A DNA stretch of 64,000 bases from Candidatus Aenigmatarchaeota archaeon (GCA_016181005.1 JACPAE010000001.1:179885-243884); one strand, 5' to 3'. Shown: positions 91 through 41,124, counted from the first letter of the stretch. Translations and numbers: made by a program. The notes: generated by a model not told the origin, from the sequence alone.

Positions 91-194
91 TGGACTGGTG
101 GGGATTTGAACCCCAGGCCTTCTGCTTCAGCGACCTCTATGCCATCTGCGGAATCACTCTATGCAGACGATCTACCAGACTGATCTACCAGCCC
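91..194 (-). tRNA. Intron-containing tRNA with Ala-type identity elements (G3:U70, A73). About 30 extra nt lie in the anticodon arm. Anticodon unresolved: GGC if two short insertions flank the loop, CTG if one non-canonical intron at 33/34.
   Basis: Minus strand reads GGGCTGG-TA-GATC-AGTCTGGTA-GATC-G-TCTGC-[37 nt]-GCAGA-AGGCC-TGGGG-TTCAAAT-CCCCA-CCAGTCC-A. The backbone closely resembles archaeal tRNA-Ala. A direct repeat GCATAGAG occurs twice inside the insertion. Confidence 0.6.
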
Positions 195-32761: not shown

Positions 32762-33880
32762 TTACTCTTCGCTTCTCACTATAAGGTCAAACATTCCAGT
32801 TCCTGCCGGCACAATCTGCCCCACCATGACATTCTCAAAGATTCCCTGCAAGTTGTCAATCTCGTTCCTTATCGAAGCCTTGACAAGATGCTTTATCGTC
32901 TCCTCGAAGGCAGCCCGAGCAAGAATAGAAGTCTTCGCTCCTGCAACACCATAGCGCCCTATAGAATCAACAGCGCCGCTAAATGTCATAATGTCGGCAA
33001 CAAGAGTAACATACCTGACATCCACGTCAAGCGCCTGCTCCTGCATTGTCTTCAAAGCCTCCCTTATTATGACGCTCCTTGCGGCTTCTATGCCTAGCAC
33101 AGATTCTATCTCATAAATGTCATTTGTGAACGTTTTCTTCTCATCGACTTCCTTTATTTTCAGCACATCGCTCAAATTAGTTCCTATAGTGTTTATTATC
33201 CAGTCATCCTCCTCTTTTCTAACAAGAGCGTTTTTAATCCCTTTAACTCCCGTAACAGACAGCATCAGAATCTTTTCTTTCAGCTTCTGCAGCTCCTTAA
33301 CGTCATCAGTCTTCGCTATAACTGAAATCTTATCCTCCCTAGACCTGACATTCACGTTCTTCACAGACTCTTTGATAATCCTTTGCATCACATCAACCCT
33401 TCTCTTGTCGGAGACTTCAATTTCTATCGCGTTCTCGTTCAAGTTCAGCGAGATCCGATTAATGAGATTCATAACCTTCTTTTCTATAACAAATTCCGCA
33501 AGTTTAGCGGCCTCGGTCGCATTGTTGCTTTCTCTCTTCAAATATATGGTCATCATGGGAGTCTCGGGCGTCTTTTTGGCATCGAAAATTTCTATTAGCC
33601 TAGGCAGGCCATAAGTAACTCTTATCCCGGCTGTTCCTGCAAAGTGATAAGTACGCATCGTCATCTGTGTAGCTGGTTCAGAAATGCTTTGGGCAGCAAT
33701 TATTCCTATTCCCTCGGCCGGTTCAAATCTGCCTTGAAGATAAACTTTCTTGACTTCTTCAAGCAGCTTCTGCTTCTTCTCCGCATTCAGTCTCATTTCC
33801 TTCCCGACATTCTCCACTTCTTCCAGCAATTTACTAGGCAAGTTGTCTTCATGCGAATTTGTCTGCGATTTCTCTGACAT
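32762..33880 (-). CDS. rpoA2: RNA polymerase subunit A''
   Basis: 372 aa. GIGIIAAQSISEPATQMTMRTYHFAG. Overlaps the upstream gene by 32 nt. Confidence 0.9.
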   Translation of the reverse strand: MSEKSQTNSHEDNLPSKLLEEVENVGKEMRLNAEKKQKLLEEVKKVYLQGRFEPAEGIGIIAAQSISEPATQMTMRTYHFAGTAGIRVTYGLPRLIEIFDAKKTPETPMMTIYLKRESNNATEAAKLAEFVIEKKVMNLINRISLNLNENAIEIEVSDKRRVDVMQRIIKESVKNVNVRSREDKISVIAKTDDVKELQKLKEKILMLSVTGVKGIKNALVRKEEDDWIINTIGTNLSDVLKIKEVDEKKTFTNDIYEIESVLGIEAARSVIIREALKTMQEQALDVDVRYVTLVADIMTFSGAVDSIGRYGVAGAKTSILARAAFEETIKHLVKASIRNEIDNLQGIFENVMVGQIVPAGTGMFDLIVRSEE

Positions 33881-36800
33881 TTATTCCTCCACTTTCTATT
33901 TTTGACGGATCCAAACCATCCTCGCCCGGCACAAACTGCACTATCCTGTTGGCGCTGTCCCTTACAGTACCGTCGTATTCGACTTTCAAATCCTGCAGCG
34001 CACCGACCAGCCTTCTTTCCATATAACCGCTGTGCCTTGTCTTCAGCGACTTGTCCATAAGCGACTCCCTGCTGTTGATAGCATCGAAGAAGAATTCAAA
34101 CGGCGTAACACCGTCCTTGAACCCTCTACTGACGAATCCTGTCGCCTCCAAGCTCAACGTTCCTGGCTTGAAATGCGGAAATGTCCGCTGATAATAACCC
34201 TTCTCTATCCTCTCACCCATAACCATCTCCTGCCCGACCATCGCAGCAGTTTGCACAATGTTCACAACCGATCCCCTGGCACCGCTCCTCACCATTGCAA
34301 GTGTAAAGTTGTCCTTCAAATACTTCTCAAGAACTTTTTGCACATCATTCAACCCGTTCCTCAGGATTGTTTTGACAATGTGGTCAAGGCTCTCCTTCGG
34401 CGACCTGCCGACAAGAAGCTTCAACTCGCCCCTCTCATATTTCTTGTTTGTGTCGTCAACATCTTTCCTCAGGGTTTCTATAATCTCCTTTATGTCCTTC
34501 TTCGCATTCTCCGGCAGGTCCTGGTCAGACAAGCTGATGGAAAATCCAATAAGCATAAGATAGTTTATCGCCAGCCTTGTAACATTGTAGATGAACTTTT
34601 TAGTAGCCTCGCCGCCGTACACCTTTTCCATCTTGTCTATTATTTTTCCGGCCTCGGCTCCGATGGCAACTTTGTCTATAGCCCCCTTTAAAAGCCTGCC
34701 ATTCTCTATCACGACACTTTCCCCTGTGTTCGATTTGAATTCGAGCGAGAATCCTTTCGGCAGGAACGTGCTGAACACTTCTTTTCCTGTAAGATGCTCC
34801 TTGTCCGGCAACTCTATGCTCTGGTCGACAGCCCTTACAAGCTGCGTGAACTCTTTTCTTGAAAGTTTGACATTGTCCTGTGTCAGAAGATACGATCCGG
34901 TTATGTGGTCACGTATGGCTCCTATGACAGGCCCCGAGAATCTCGGGCTTCGTATGTGCTTCGGCACCATCATCAAATTCTCCACCTCAACCTTTGCCTC
35001 TTCTGTCTGTGGCACATGAAGGTTCATCTCATCCCCGTCAAAATCGGCATTGTAAGGAGTGGTCGCGCTGAGATTCATTCTGAAAGTTTTGAAGGGCATG
35101 ACCTTGACTTTATGCCCCATCAAGCTCATCCTGTGAAGGCTGGGTTGCCTATTGAAAATAACAATGTCGCCGTTCTGCAAATGCCTCTCCACAATGTAGC
35201 CAGGGGCAATCTCGGTTGCTATCTCGCTCTTGTTCAAATCGGTTATCTTCTTTCTCCTTCCGTCGGGCCTGATTACGTAATTTGCTCCCGGCCAAATCTC
35301 TGAACCGTTCAGGACGAGCTTTTTGAGCTCTTCCAAGTCGCTTTCGTTAACTTTGACAGGCATTGTCAATTCTTTCGCGATGACTTCAGGAACTCCAACC
35401 TCGTCAATATCGATCATTGGATCTGGTGAGATGACAGTTCTCGCAGAAAAGTTAACCCTCTTGCCGGCAAGGTTTCCTCTGAATCTCCCTTCCTTGGTCT
35501 TCAACCTCTGCGACAGTGTCTTAAGCACCCTTCCCGATCTGTGCCTTGCAGGCGGGACTCCAGACAGCTCATTGTCGAAATAAGTTGATATATGGTACTG
35601 CAAAAGTTCCCACAAGTCTTCAAGTATAAAGTCTGGCGCACCCAAGTCGATGTTCTCCTTTAACCTGTCATTAATCCTTACTATGTCAACAAGTTTGTGC
35701 GTGAGGTCGTCCTCGCTCCTCTCCCCTGTCTCGAGTGTGATAGACGGTCTTACGGTAACAGGCGGTATAGGCATCAGCGTCAGCACAAGCCACTCCGGCC
35801 TCACCTTCAAGCCGATCACGTCAAGGTCCTCCTGTGAAATCTTCTCCAACATTTCCCTCACCTCGCCAAAATTCAGCGTCCTTGCTCCTTCGACAAACGT
35901 GTAAGGCTTGATGAACTTGAACTTCTTCTGCTCAGTATTGCAGTGCGGACACTTTTTTCTGGACATTGTCACAAGCTCTTTAAAGTTCATTTTCTTCCCC
36001 CTGGCCTTTTCAATGTCCTTGGGATCAACGAGCATCTTGACGCACTTGTGGCAAAACATTTTCAAAAGCGCAAAAACAATTTTCGAATAGTGTACATGTA
36101 TGATGGGTTTTGTCAGTTCCAAGTAGCCGAAATGCCCGTGGCAGTCTCCCACATTTCCCCCGCAAGTCCTGCATCTCACACCAGGATCTATAACCCCAAG
36201 CCTCGGGTCCATCAAGCCACCTTCAATCGGATAGCCTTCTTGGTCGTAAAGCTCTGTCTTGGTCAGCTTGGCCGCGGCAATGCTCTTCACCATCTCAGGC
36301 GAGACGATTCCAAATTCCAGCTTGCTCACCTTCATCAGGTTCTCGTCGACAACAATCTTCGGATAAATAAGCATGCTCTTGAGCTCGTCCAGCATAAGCT
36401 TGAACGCGTAGCTCATCTCCACATCAACTATCTTTGACTCTCCATGTATCGGGCAAATTTTTTTGTTCTTTACGCGGTCCTGAATGGAAACCAAGCCGCA
36501 GAGGGTGCAGATACATACAGTCGTCTTGTCAGAGTCGAACCTTTCTTTCAGCACAAGCGACGCACCATGAGCTATGAGGCAGTCCTTCTCCATCTCACCA
36601 AGCCTCAGACCGCCTTCCTTGCTTCTTCCTTCAGTCGGTTGCTTTGTCAGCAGCGTCACAGGTCCCCTCGATCTCGCATGTATTTTGTTTGAAACAAGAT
36701 GATCCAGCTTCTGGTAAAACGTGCTTCCGATAAATATCTGAGAGTCGAATCTCTTTCCTGTCCTGCCATCGTACATTATTTCCTTCCCGTCGTTTCTAAA

Positions 36801-38132
36801 TCCATGAGCCACCAAAGTGTTTCTAAGTTCATTCTCCGGCGTCGGGCTGAACGCAGACGCATTCACGTACTTGCCAGTAAGCGCAGCCACCTTGCCTGCG
36901 ATAATCTCCAGCAACTGCCCCATAGTCATTCTTGACGGAATGCCGTGGGGATTGAAAATTATGTCCGGCACAATACCGCTTTCTGTGAACGGCATGTCTT
37001 CAGACGGAACAACAAGGGCGATTACACCTTTCTGGCCGTGCCTTGACGCAAGCTTGTCGCCGATTTCAGGAACCTTCATGTCCCTAACAGCAACTTTAAT
37101 CAGCTTTGTGCCGTCAGTAGTGTCGGTTATGAAAACCCTGTCAACAACTCCATGGTCGCCATGCCTAAGCCTTAAAGAAGTTTCGCGTATGTTCTCCAGG
37201 CCTGTGACAAACTTGTCCATGGTACCCAAGAACCTAAGCGGCGACACCCTCCCGATTATCACCTGATCCGATTCCAAAATTGTTTCCGGATTCGATATCC
37301 CGTCTTCCGGCAGATGCTTGTATGAGTCCTCGCCAGCATAACCTCTGACGCCGGCCTCAGGTATCGCTATTATGTCCTCCTGGCCTCCAAGATACCTTTT
37401 TTGCTCCGCTTCATAAGACCTGTACATGTAGGACCACAGAACACCTTTCTGCAAAGAGCCTGCATTTATGACTATGCTGTCTTCCATGTTGTACCCATCA
37501 AAGGACGCCACTGCAATTATCAGATTGTTTCCGTTCGGATGGGTATTGTAAGGGATGACATCGTATGCATGGGTCTGCACCAAGGGCCTTTGAGGGTAAA
37601 TCATCACGTTCGACTTGGTGTCGACTCTGGAAAGGAAATTCGTGGCAAAAATTCCAATGGACTGCCCGACCATTTTAGCCCCGTAGTTGACCCTGTCCCC
37701 CCTGTTGAATTCTGGGAACGGAATGAAAGATGCAGAGAAACCCAAAATTACTGCTGGATCCATTTCAATATGAGTGTGGTCCGGCGTAAGCTCGTTCTCA
37801 TCAAGTGCAATCAAAGAGTTTTCCTCCTCCTCGCTGTCAAGATACTCAACAACGCCGGTCTTCACCAATTCACTCCAGTTAATCTCACCTTTCTTCAATT
37901 TCTCCACTAGCTCTTTCGTCAATTTCGGGACTCCCCTCTCGACAACAATCAACGGCCTTCTCACTCTTCCGGATTCCGACAGAATTCTGACTTCGTCCAA
38001 ATTCCGGTGGTAAACTACATTTACTTCATAGGGTATAACCCCGGCCCTTCTCTTTTCCCTGATATCTCTAACAAGCTTTTCCGGATCTGCCGTGTCGCCA
38101 ACAAACTTGCCGTCAAAAAATATCGTGCTCAT
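33849..38132 (-). CDS. rpoB1-rpoA1: RNA polymerase subunit B' (C-terminal half of RpoB, residues 1-599) fused in frame to subunit A' (residues 600-1427)
   Basis: The B' part has GRHGQKGV, FDGYNMEDS, GEMEKDCLIAHGA and a C-terminal zinc ribbon. The A' part has MKVSKLEFGIVSPE, zinc ribbons and NADFDGDEMN. I read the junction DNA as ...gac gag aac ctg atg aag gtg agc..., with no stop. Confidence 0.85.
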   Translation of the reverse strand: MSTIFFDGKFVGDTADPEKLVRDIREKRRAGVIPYEVNVVYHRNLDEVRILSESGRVRRPLIVVERGVPKLTKELVEKLKKGEINWSELVKTGVVEYLDSEEEENSLIALDENELTPDHTHIEMDPAVILGFSASFIPFPEFNRGDRVNYGAKMVGQSIGIFATNFLSRVDTKSNVMIYPQRPLVQTHAYDVIPYNTHPNGNNLIIAVASFDGYNMEDSIVINAGSLQKGVLWSYMYRSYEAEQKRYLGGQEDIIAIPEAGVRGYAGEDSYKHLPEDGISNPETILESDQVIIGRVSPLRFLGTMDKFVTGLENIRETSLRLRHGDHGVVDRVFITDTTDGTKLIKVAVRDMKVPEIGDKLASRHGQKGVIALVVPSEDMPFTESGIVPDIIFNPHGIPSRMTMGQLLEIIAGKVAALTGKYVNASAFSPTPENELRNTLVAHGFRNDGKEIMYDGRTGKRFDSQIFIGSTFYQKLDHLVSNKIHARSRGPVTLLTKQPTEGRSKEGGLRLGEMEKDCLIAHGASLVLKERFDSDKTTVCICTLCGLVSIQDRVKNKKICPIHGESKIVDVEMSYAFKLMLDELKSMLIYPKIVVDENLMKVSKLEFGIVSPEMVKSIAAAKLTKTELYDQEGYPIEGGLMDPRLGVIDPGVRCRTCGGNVGDCHGHFGYLELTKPIIHVHYSKIVFALLKMFCHKCVKMLVDPKDIEKARGKKMNFKELVTMSRKKCPHCNTEQKKFKFIKPYTFVEGARTLNFGEVREMLEKISQEDLDVIGLKVRPEWLVLTLMPIPPVTVRPSITLETGERSEDDLTHKLVDIVRINDRLKENIDLGAPDFILEDLWELLQYHISTYFDNELSGVPPARHRSGRVLKTLSQRLKTKEGRFRGNLAGKRVNFSARTVISPDPMIDIDEVGVPEVIAKELTMPVKVNESDLEELKKLVLNGSEIWPGANYVIRPDGRRKKITDLNKSEIATEIAPGYIVERHLQNGDIVIFNRQPSLHRMSLMGHKVKVMPFKTFRMNLSATTPYNADFDGDEMNLHVPQTEEAKVEVENLMMVPKHIRSPRFSGPVIGAIRDHITGSYLLTQDNVKLSRKEFTQLVRAVDQSIELPDKEHLTGKEVFSTFLPKGFSLEFKSNTGESVVIENGRLLKGAIDKVAIGAEAGKIIDKMEKVYGGEATKKFIYNVTRLAINYLMLIGFSISLSDQDLPENAKKDIKEIIETLRKDVDDTNKKYERGELKLLVGRSPKESLDHIVKTILRNGLNDVQKVLEKYLKDNFTLAMVRSGARGSVVNIVQTAAMVGQEMVMGERIEKGYYQRTFPHFKPGTLSLEATGFVSRGFKDGVTPFEFFFDAINSRESLMDKSLKTRHSGYMERRLVGALQDLKVEYDGTVRDSANRIVQFVPGEDGLDPSKIESGGINVREIADKFA

Positions 38133-40013: not shown

Positions 40014-40140
40014 CGCCCGAAGCGGGATTTGAACCCGCGTTTGCTGTCATAGTTTAATGATCACAGCCGTGACAGGGTTATGCGACAACTCTGCATCCTA
40101 GGCCATTCTCCCAGGTTTAACCTGTCTAGACGATTCGGGC
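40014..40140 (-). tRNA. tRNA-like element: perfect T-arm and 7-bp acceptor helix enclosing 127 nt. Interior does not fold into canonical D or anticodon arms. Either a multi-intron pre-tRNA or a tRNA-derived pseudogene.
   Basis: 5' GCCCGAA ... GCGGG-TTCAAAT-CCCGC-TTCGGGC-G 3'. Internal hairpin CTGTCA-N20-TGACAG. About 50 nt in excess of a mature tRNA. Confidence 0.45.
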
Positions 40141-40188
40141 TTGTTGAATAATAGAATGTGGTTGTTTATAAATTTGAGATAAGAGGTA

Positions 40189-40320
40189 GAAGGACGCAGT
40201 GCAGTTCCCGTGGTCAAGCCACAGTACAAAGCACCACGCTGGAGAGTTTAACTTCCGTGTTCGGATTTCCCTACTTTTAGAGTATATGGGAACGGGTGGA
40301 ACCTCTCCGCTCTGGTCCTT
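40189..40320 (-). rRNA. rrf: 5S rRNA, standalone, with an approximately 21-nt insertion after the CCCAT segment
   Basis: Minus strand reads GGACCAGAGCGGAGAGGTTCCACCCGTTCCCAT[ATACTCTAAAAGTAGGGAAAT]CCGAACACGGAAGTTAAAC...GTACTG...GGGAACTGC...GCGTCCTTC. Universal CCGAACACGGAAGTTAA motif present, and helix I closes via GAAGGAC/GTCCTTC. Confidence 0.8.
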
Positions 40321-40390
40321 CAATAACTTTATGAGGTATTCAATGTTTTTAAACATGTAGTATAACGAATAAATGTTTTGTCATATTTCA

Positions 40391-40870
40391 TTAAAGCATA
40401 GGGGTGTGAGCCATTTTATTCATGACATAGCTAGGTAGTTTTTCAAGGAACCGTAGGCGCCTTTCTGATACACTGGTATTTGGATTAACAAAACAACGGT
40501 CTGCATCCCACAAATCAGCTACTAGCGTTCCTGAAGCATAGTTTAGACCACTATGCCTGTTGCCAATAGTTGTAACACTATACACCATTCCTATCTGCGG
40601 GAGTCTTACTGTGAAATAACTATATATACGGTGGCCAGTAACAAAATCAAGCATCTGGGAGTGTTCTCTATAATCCGCGAATCCTCTTAGCGGGTGGCTT
40701 CTCCAAGCATCTCCTGGTATTTCGGCAAGTCTATTCATTATGTGCTCTAGCCTTTGACTATGCGCTTCGTAATTTCTTACTGGATGTTTTGCAGGATGAT
40801 TGGTTGTAGCCGGTAGTGGTTGATTGGCAGCTTCTTCAATTTCCTCAATCGGTGTAAATGTAGAATTCAT
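40391..40870 (-). CDS. Hypothetical protein
   Basis: 159-aa ORF. Weak resemblance to LAS/M15 peptidase His/Asp motifs, not convincing. Confidence 0.3.
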   Translation of the reverse strand: MNSTFTPIEEIEEAANQPLPATTNHPAKHPVRNYEAHSQRLEHIMNRLAEIPGDAWRSHPLRGFADYREHSQMLDFVTGHRIYSYFTVRLPQIGMVYSVTTIGNRHSGLNYASGTLVADLWDADRCFVNPNTSVSERRLRFLEKLPSYVMNKMAHTPML

Positions 40871-41013: not shown

Positions 41014-41124
41014 TCCCGAAGGAGAGATTTGAACTCTCAACCTCACCGTATCCGGTAGAGTGCTGATCACTAGCACAATAGTACTAGGCTACAGCGGCGC
41101 GCTCCACCATTGAGCTACTTCGGG
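41014..41124 (-). tRNA. tRNA-Tyr (GTA) with 39-nt intron at canonical 37/38 position
   Basis: CCCGAAG-TA-GCTC-AATGGTG-GAGC-G-CGCCG-CTGTAG[39 nt]A-CGGTG-AGGTT-GAGAG-TTCAAAT-CTCTC-CTTCGGG-A. C1:G72 and A73 are archaeal Tyr identity elements. Intron CTAC pairs with GTAG, consistent with a BHB. Confidence 0.8.

Follow-up and report, generated by a model that had tools for sequence, protein, structure and literature searches.

The window, the whole 64,000-nt stretch of DNA that was analysed, belongs to a metagenome-assembled genome (MAG) of Candidatus Aenigmarchaeota (DPANN): its RpoB'' is 100% identical to the protein of a MAG assigned to that group. On the minus strand, a 5S rRNA gene and a tRNA-like element stand in a conserved gene order of nitroreductase, a gene of about 479 aa, a tRNA, a variable ORF, 5S rRNA, tRNA-Asp, rpoH and rpoB'' (Table 1). 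Variable ORFs lie around the 5S gene, between the upstream tRNA and tRNA-Asp, and in three relatives they include genes resembling LAGLIDADG homing endonucleases (L024 2309-2977, L025 1860-2789 and L026 1816-2469); ORF159 of the window, in the same slot, is unrelated to these and has no match in Pfam or NCBIfam. The window also carries a single ORF of 1427 aa in which RpoB' (residues 2-598) is fused in frame to RpoA' (600-1425); the 1427-aa gene recurs in the closest relative (L023/L029, GCA_964373665.1), whereas in more distant ones B' and A' are encoded separately, by overlapping genes. Three per-run Logan assemblies (SRR12113430, SRR12113385 and SRR12113424) agree with window 41067-39295 at zero mismatches, the identity spanning 1.1-1.8 kb and covering both the tRNA-Asp gene and an insertion in the 5S gene. 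Because these three assemblies are identical, the tRNA-Asp sequence of the window is not an assembly artefact.

Table 1. Features discussed in the text, in window coordinates; RNA positions are those of the unspliced transcript, and paired numbers such as 15/16 are tRNA positions.
Feature	Coordinates	Strand	Description
Predicted tRNA-Asp(GUC) gene	40014..40140	minus	Complete, 127 nt unspliced; G1 = 40140, discriminator G73 = 40014
Acceptor stem, 5' strand	40134..40140	minus	GCCCGAA, RNA 1-7
Acceptor stem, 3' strand	40015..40021	minus	UUCGGGC, RNA 120-126
T arm	40022..40038	minus	GCGGG-UUCAAAU-CCCGC, RNA 103-119
Exon 1	40126..40140	minus	tRNA 1-15: acceptor 5' strand, U8, C9, D-stem 5' strand GUCU, A14, G15
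Predicted intron 1	40106..40125	minus	20 nt, ACAGGUUAAACCUGGGAGAA; RNA 16-35; D loop, 15/16
Exon 2	40091..40105	minus	tRNA 16-29: D loop UGGCCUA, D-stem 3' strand GGAU, G26, C27 A28 G29
Predicted intron 2	40078..40090	minus	13 nt, AGUUGUCGCAUAA; RNA 51-63; anticodon stem, 29/30
Exon 3	40062..40077	minus	tRNA 30-45: C30 C31, loop CUGUCAC, GGCUG, U44 G45; anticodon GUC 40073-40071
Predicted intron 3	40041..40061	minus	21 nt, AUCAUUAAACUAUGACAGCAA; RNA 80-100; variable loop, 45/46
Exon 4	40014..40040	minus	tRNA 46-73: A46 C48, T arm, acceptor 3' strand, G73
TATA-like box	40165..40172	minus	TTTATAAA; 25-32 nt upstream of G1; putative tRNA-Asp promoter
5S rRNA gene	40186..40323	minus	138 nt; Rfam 64.6 bits; 3' end 45 nt upstream of tRNA-Asp 5' end
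5S insertion	40266..40285	minus	20 nt, AUACUCUAAAAGUAGGGAAA; loop C, between CCCAU and UCCGAAC
ORF159	40391..40870	minus	159 aa
Upstream tRNA	41014..41124	minus	42-nt insertion in anticodon loop
Fused RpoB'-RpoA' ORF	33849..38132	minus	1427 aa
tRNA-Ala(GGC)	91..194	minus	G3-U70, A73

The ends, T arm and discriminator G of the element are located as the original prediction described them, and the 5S gene adjoins it as stated: the acceptor stem is a perfect 7 bp, and the discriminator is RNA 127, where RNA position n corresponds to window coordinate 40141 - n. The gene lies on the minus strand, the orientation in which the interior sequence had already been given. That interior had been judged impossible to fold as a cloverleaf, and so it proves in the unspliced gene, on which ARAGORN is silent and the Rfam tRNA model (RF00005) returns 18.3 bits (E = 0.41) against a gathering threshold of 29 bits, aligning only by way of a forced false acceptor stem. 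Such a low score is to be expected of a model with no states to accommodate three insertions. The 128-nt RNA folds better than all of 200 shuffled sequences (z = -3.6).

The nature of the tRNA is indicated by CUGUCAC (RNA 66-72), the anticodon loop of tRNA-Asp(GUC), which G73 fits. Removal of 54 nt at three sites, where about 50 nt at more than one site had been anticipated, yields the 73-nt product GCCCGAAUCGUCUAGUGGCCUAGGAUGCAGCCCUGUCACGGCUGUGACGCGGGUUCAAAUCCCGCUUCGGGCG, a canonical cloverleaf with conserved tRNA nucleotides: an acceptor stem of 7 bp, a D stem of 4 bp, a perfect 5-bp anticodon stem (CAGCC/GGCUG), a T stem of 5 bp, a 9-nt D loop and a 4-nt variable loop. The product was checked against a list of identity elements from yeast and archaeal tRNA-Asp, and it has GUC in CUGUCAC, G73, C38, the G10-U25 wobble pair and the 4-nt variable loop. 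ARAGORN, negative on the gene as it stands, calls the triple-spliced sequence (73-75 nt) tRNA-Asp(gtc) with scores of 116.6-119.2. Among partly spliced forms it calls Asp only when introns 1 and 2 are both gone; the precursor and the forms lacking intron 2 only or intron 3 only receive no call, and the remaining forms, which retain intron 1 or 2, receive spurious identities. No CCA is encoded. The four exons are colinear inside 127 nt, unlike those of a split or permuted tRNA gene. Other candidates considered for the element (a class II tRNA for Ser or Leu, tRNA-His(GUG), tRNA-Met(CAU), an intronic C/D-box sRNA and a permuted gene) were set aside, as the Asp model explains every nucleotide.

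Intron-less references were obtained by scanning one genome per species, in a collection that lacks the source lineage, with the 25-nt 3' end of the gene (T arm, acceptor strand and G73), which returned nine loci, all haloarchaeal; eight are called tRNA-Asp(gtc) by ARAGORN and the ninth runs off the end of its locus. We use these genes as references and not as orthologues. All nine, which are intron-less tRNA-Asp(GUC) loci, share these 25 nt exactly with the window element, so that its likeness to tRNA-Asp is not due to chance. Moreover, the spliced product aligns over its full length, almost base for base, with the eight complete haloarchaeal genes (alignment A1), including CUGUCAC, the variable-loop junction GUGAC|GCGGG, the 4-nt variable loop, C38 and G10-U25.

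Orthologues came from two sources, a metagenome scan that looked for tRNA-Asp genes in which additional sequence follows the anticodon loop, ahead of the T stem, and syntenic loci reached through RpoB'' homologues, and together comprise a set of 11 related loci. Two further metagenome matches (L012 and L019) were discarded as chance matches, and four (L014, L016, L017 and L018) were set aside as tRNA arrays of unrelated organisms. These four are dense, with 16 to 19 tRNAs per few kb; L014 also contains a bacterial SRP RNA, and L017 (Ga0255341_1019666) a gene resembling tRNA-Asp whose variable region is longer by about 20 nt. The contig of the closest relative, which encodes P0002 (RpoB'' 89% identical), stops 241 nt upstream of rpoH and so does not reach the tRNA-Asp and 5S genes. 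Relative to the insertions of the window gene at 15/16, 29/30 and 45/46, those of the orthologues are distributed as follows: 15/16, 29/30 and 43/44 in L010; 43/44 only in L011; 15/16 and 45/46 in L013, L015 and L025; 29/30, 37/38 and 45/46 in L024; 28/29 and 45/46 in L026; the 3' end of the D loop in L028; 15/16, 45/46 and 53/54 in L030; 29/30, 37/38, 45/46 and the T loop in L031 and L032; and 7/8, 29/30, 37/38, 53/54 and the T loop in L027.

Every insertion position is uninterrupted in some relative, so that the junctions can be read directly: L011, L024, L031, L026 and L028, each without at least one intron, run uninterrupted across the predicted junctions. The intron at 15/16 is absent from L011, L024 and L031, that at 29/30 from L011, L013 and L025, and that at 45/46 from L028, L027 and the haloarchaeal genes. 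The boundaries of intron 1 are set by the intron-less D loops of L011 (CUAG|UGGCCC), L024, L031 and the haloarchaea, exon 1 being in the same register as L011 (CUAG|UGGC). Removing the 29/30 intron of L010 at the same site gives GUAG|CCCU, as in the intron-less L011, and the window junction left by removal of intron 3, GUGAC|GCGGG, is identical to that of the haloarchaeal genes.

Boundaries defined by comparison can be set against those predicted from the bulge-helix-bulge (BHB) motif, a 4-bp helix between two 3-nt bulges on opposite strands, in which cuts fall between bulge nucleotides 2 and 3. We asked whether the cut sites fall exactly on the insertion boundaries, with shuffled intron sequence as the control. 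BHB motifs, whose absence the original prediction would have counted against itself, are present at all three junctions of the window gene. Intron 3 has the full hBHBh' form, with central helix GCUG/CAGC, bulges UG|A and AA|A, an inner hairpin UCAU/AUGA and an outer pair G39-C48 (any further one would be in competition with the T stem); none of 5000 shuffles was as good. Intron 2 has a strict BHB, with central helix AUGC/GCAU, bulges AG|A and AA|C and four outer pairs (P = 0.008), its inner part being a small loop only. Intron 1 has bulges AG|A and AA|U, a central helix GUCU/GGAG that forms three of its four pairs, an inner hairpin CAGG-UUAAA-CCUG of 4-5 bp and outer pairs C9-G37 and U8-G38, and again none of 5000 shuffles was as good. 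It is classed as a relaxed motif because of the G-G mismatch in the central helix, on account of which a strict BHB scan missed it, and an EndA of broad specificity may be needed for it; the same helix is perfect (GUCU/GGAC or GGGC) in L013, L015, L025 and L030.

The agreement extends across the orthologues. In the first eight genes, all 17 tRNA insertions have BHB cuts exactly on their boundaries, and the same is true of the 12 insertions of L030, L031 and L027; shuffle P values lie between 0 and 0.008 for the three introns of the window and do not exceed 0.02 over all 30, most being below 0.001. The orientation is uniform, the 5' strand of the central helix coming from the exon and the 3' strand from the intron. 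Covariation accompanies these motifs: U-A, G-C, A-U and C-G all occur as the innermost-helix pair that comes first in the 45/46 intron, changes in the anticodon stem are matched by the central helix of the 29/30 intron (G-C to A-U; C-G, U-A, A-U), inner hairpins show compensatory changes, and central-helix pairs follow changes in the exon.

An enumeration in the manner of SPLITS, in which the products of 2367 combinations of BHB-like excisions of the right length were scored with ARAGORN, placed tRNA-Asp(gtc) at the top for the window gene, as did the like enumerations for eight orthologues, and introns 51-63 and 80-100 (RNA numbering) occur in each of the four top-scoring solutions listed. 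The choice that such scores leave is that of the D-loop intron: the gene would still be a tRNA-Asp if RNA 17-34, 16-37 or 24-41, for example, were removed instead of 16-35, and four variants tie in ARAGORN at 116.6. A weak alternative helix, GGUU/GGCC, would also serve two models drawn by hand, Y (25-42) and Z (18-35). Only 16-35, however, yields the AGUGGCCYA of the intron-less orthologues and the haloarchaea, and only its BHB is kept in register in six orthologues, with compensatory changes; model Y, moreover, removes the conserved UGGCCUA motif. A different D-loop intron is accordingly a very slim prospect. The hand models X (16-33), Y and Z were all rejected on the strength of the intron-less L011, which gives 16-35 as the true insertion.

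The three BHBs occupy non-overlapping nucleotides and are compatible with the acceptor and T arms. A fold containing all three has a free energy of -31.4 kcal/mol against a minimum of -48.9 kcal/mol for the naked RNA, and is thus feasible, not the minimum. That the naked RNA prefers an alternative fold would suit a tRNA-like structural element in which the insertions are retained as expansion segments, for instance a signal for 5S processing like that at the 5S 5' end in Haloferax; the 5S gene adjoins the element, and in H. volcanii a tRNA-like element at 5S is a substrate of tRNase Z (Holzle 2008, as cited in PMC7714728). The element of the window, though, is on the downstream side of 5S, with a conserved TATA box of its own; a processing signal would not need a conserved anticodon loop and Asp identity nucleotides; and the distance between the two genes is not maintained in relatives, the tRNA-Asp gene of L010 being about 700 nt from 5S and the pair in L011 lying on opposite strands. 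The presence or absence of the insertions varies freely and the spliced product is constant, which speaks against retention, and we give a structural element of this kind hardly any weight.

Similar considerations apply to the second reading that the original prediction had allowed, a degenerate tRNA pseudogene or integration-site remnant, here a tRNA-Asp copy with a scrambled interior and no function. Failure of the unspliced sequence in ARAGORN and its score under the Rfam threshold could be so explained, and the variable ORFs nearby, including the LAGLIDADG genes of relatives, would be in keeping with such an origin. Yet all cloverleaf exon nucleotides are intact and pairable, the Asp identity nucleotides checked among them, and the three insertions are precisely excisable BHB units. 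At 11 or more related loci only the introns vary and exon sequence is conserved, the synteny upstream of rpoH and rpoB'' is kept, and no locus has a second tRNA-Asp at the syntenic site. The TATA-like box is likewise conserved, 8 of the 11 orthologous loci having it equally far from the gene; most loci also have a T-run after the gene, and that of the window is weak (CUUUAC). The sequence is also explained without an integrase or direct repeats. A pseudogene or remnant is on these grounds highly improbable, if a shade less so than the two alternatives above. We conclude, with a probability of roughly 0.93, that this locus is a functional tRNA-Asp(GUC) gene of four exons and three short BHB introns, as judged from comparative sequence evidence, and the first suggestion of the original prediction, multiple introns at non-canonical positions, is thereby upheld.

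We infer that the pre-tRNA-Asp of the window is spliced, along a pathway drawn largely from what holds for archaeal tRNAs in general. Transcription would start from the gene's own TATA box. Each intron pairs with its adjacent exon into a 4-bp helix with two 3-nt bulges, as the sequence and its covariation show, and EndA would then cut between bulge nucleotides 2 and 3 at six sites, after which a ligase of the RtcB type would join the four exons. RNase P and tRNase Z would trim the ends, and addition of CCA is proposed because the gene encodes none.

With one to five per gene in close relatives, over about ten positions, the introns are evolutionarily mobile to judge from these alignments. The gene of L031 (2962-3105, identical in L032) has four BHB introns, and that of L027 (3407-3584) has five insertions, four of them with a strict BHB; the insertion at 7/8 in L027 was poorly scored because the leader sequence had been left out. 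The genes of L031/L032 and L027 splice in silico to one identical 73-nt tRNA-Asp. In L010 and L011 the variable-region intron lies at 43/44, with central helix CGGC/GUCG, and in the window and six other loci at 45/46; either the intron has slid, or the two placements are independent insertions 2 nt apart. The upstream tRNA also differs between loci: it has a 42-nt insertion in the window, and an extra D-loop insertion, seen by eye, in L024 (about 2020-2140), L030 (about 1470-1610) and L031 (about 2620-2760), the sequence in these three being GCTCAA[ATCCGA...GAGAGCA]ATGGTGGAGC. Since these insertions vary, intron polymorphism is not restricted to tRNA-Asp.

Introns at different positions share sequence in some cases. 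A 10-nt hairpin, ATCGAAAGAT, recurs at two intron positions, at 15/16 in L013 and at 29/30 in L024, L031 and L027. The 4-nt strand after it differs (GGAC versus UUAU), matching the neighbouring exon in each case; at least 9 nt in common was reached by only 11 of 8740 shuffled cross-position pairs. This sharing hints at intron transposition with local adaptation, a pattern that resembles the transposition inferred for introns of Thermoproteales (Fujishima 2010, as cited in PMC4090602).

An element of the same design interrupts the neighbouring 5S rRNA gene. The 5S genes of all seven relatives examined are 116-119 nt long, and the excess in the window is one 20-nt block, whose excision gives CCCAUUCCGAAC, the very sequence of L010. 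Around this block a perfect BHB can be drawn (UCCC/GGGA, with bulges AU|A and AA|U) whose cuts fall on the block's boundaries (shuffle P = 0.0006), with an inner hairpin UACU-CUAAA-AGUA; a generic count of BHBs of any kind in the 5S RNA was uninformative, at 1 against a shuffle mean of 2.5. In length and plan (1 nt, a 4-bp hairpin with a 5-nt loop, a 4-nt exon-pairing strand, AA) the block equals the tRNA-Asp D-loop intron, and it has TAGGGAAA in common with the D-loop intron of L010. It is a candidate for a spliced 5S rRNA intron, though it may instead be retained as an expansion. Known archaeal rRNA introns lie in 16S and 23S rRNA, are usually tens to hundreds of nt long, and in some cases contain LAGLIDADG ORFs. 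Like them, the 5S block is a BHB-bounded element that interrupts an rRNA gene, presumably a substrate of the same EndA; it differs in being 20 nt long, in lying in loop C of 5S and in being built like a tRNA D-loop intron. The literature that we searched contains no report of a 5S rRNA intron.

A second tRNA hidden from the standard tools lies near the start of the window: tRNA-Ala(GGC), missed by both ARAGORN and Rfam. Two insertions flank its anticodon loop (RNA 33-49 and 57-69), their junctions form minimal BHB helices (CUGC/GCAG and UGGC/GCUG), and once they are removed ARAGORN scores the product at 119.0. A permissive splice-and-score scan did not resolve this gene at 194-91; G3-U70 gave the clue from which its structure was worked out by inspection, and ARAGORN bore the solution out.

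Taken jointly, these observations lead us to a tentative hypothesis, to which we give somewhat less than even odds: the 5S-tRNA-Asp locus of Aenigmarchaeota would be a hot spot for mobile BHB mini-introns of about 13-24 nt, with four or five in a single 73-nt gene, whose re-insertion keeps the hairpin and adapts only the 4-nt exon-pairing strand, and one of which entered the 5S gene of the window to become what would be the first spliced 5S rRNA intron.

Multi-intron tRNA genes are already known, from Thermoproteales such as Pyrobaculum calidifontis and Thermofilum pendens (Sugahara 2007/2008, as reviewed in PMC4090602, PMC4033280 and PMC8450103), and they are also listed for ARMAN-1/2, Nanoarchaeum, M. 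kandleri and others (PMC4033280); because such genes occur in Thermoproteales and ARMAN, the window gene belongs to a known kind, ordinary in type and notable in degree. The likeness to Thermoproteales is close: up to three short introns per gene with BHB, HBh' or hBH motifs, non-canonical sites including 29/30 and 45/46 (both recognised intron positions; PMC4090602), genes that standard finders miss, rapid intron turnover between relatives, and similar introns at different sites that are read as transposition. Thermoproteales, however, are Crenarchaeota of the TACK group with a heterotetrameric EndA bearing the crenarchaeal loop, whereas the window is from a DPANN aenigmarchaeon, and its introns, unlike theirs, are very short (13-21 nt) and follow a minimal common plan. 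The published maximum is three introns per archaeal tRNA gene (PMC4033280; PMC8450103), which the window gene equals and which its relatives L031/L032, with four, and L027, with five insertions, exceed.

Within DPANN, many tRNA genes are disrupted and some escape gene finders (PMC5829648), and an alpha4 EndA with an L3 loop has been described, as has the epsilon2 EndA of the Micrarchaeota ARMAN-1/2 (PMC5829648, PMC3488258). Other members of the superphylum thus resemble the window in their non-canonical and multiple introns, and their incomplete tRNA sets have been ascribed to undetected disrupted genes (PMC5829648, PMC3488258). Aenigmarchaeota are not among the four DPANN genomes newly analysed in that tRNA survey, and are named there only in the expansion of DPANN (PMC5829648). 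A further parallel is the pre-tRNA-Glu(UUC) of Methanopyrus kandleri, which has a D-loop HBh' intron together with a canonical one and for which cleavage has been shown experimentally (PMC5829648); it shares with the window gene a non-canonical D-loop intron, a relaxed BHB and another intron in the same precursor, and differs in isoacceptor and lineage, the window gene having three introns and none at the canonical 37/38. The literature searched held no description of this tRNA-Asp gene, nor of tRNA genes with more than three introns. More unusual than the window gene itself are its relatives with four or five introns, the 5S insertion and the hidden tRNA-Ala.

ARAGORN and the Rfam tRNA model overlook both tRNA-Asp and tRNA-Ala; annotated with tools of this sort, DPANN genomes like the present one would seem short of essential tRNAs, and such apparent gaps feed claims of reduced translation capacity or dependence on a host. 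The mechanism by which archaeal BHB introns are gained, lost and moved is still called unknown in reviews (PMC4090602), and about ten variable positions in one 73-nt gene provide an unusually dense natural series for these processes. Splicing of the 5S insertion, if it takes place, would add 5S rRNA to the substrates of the tRNA splicing endonuclease and would tie the origins of tRNA and rRNA introns to a single family of mobile elements.
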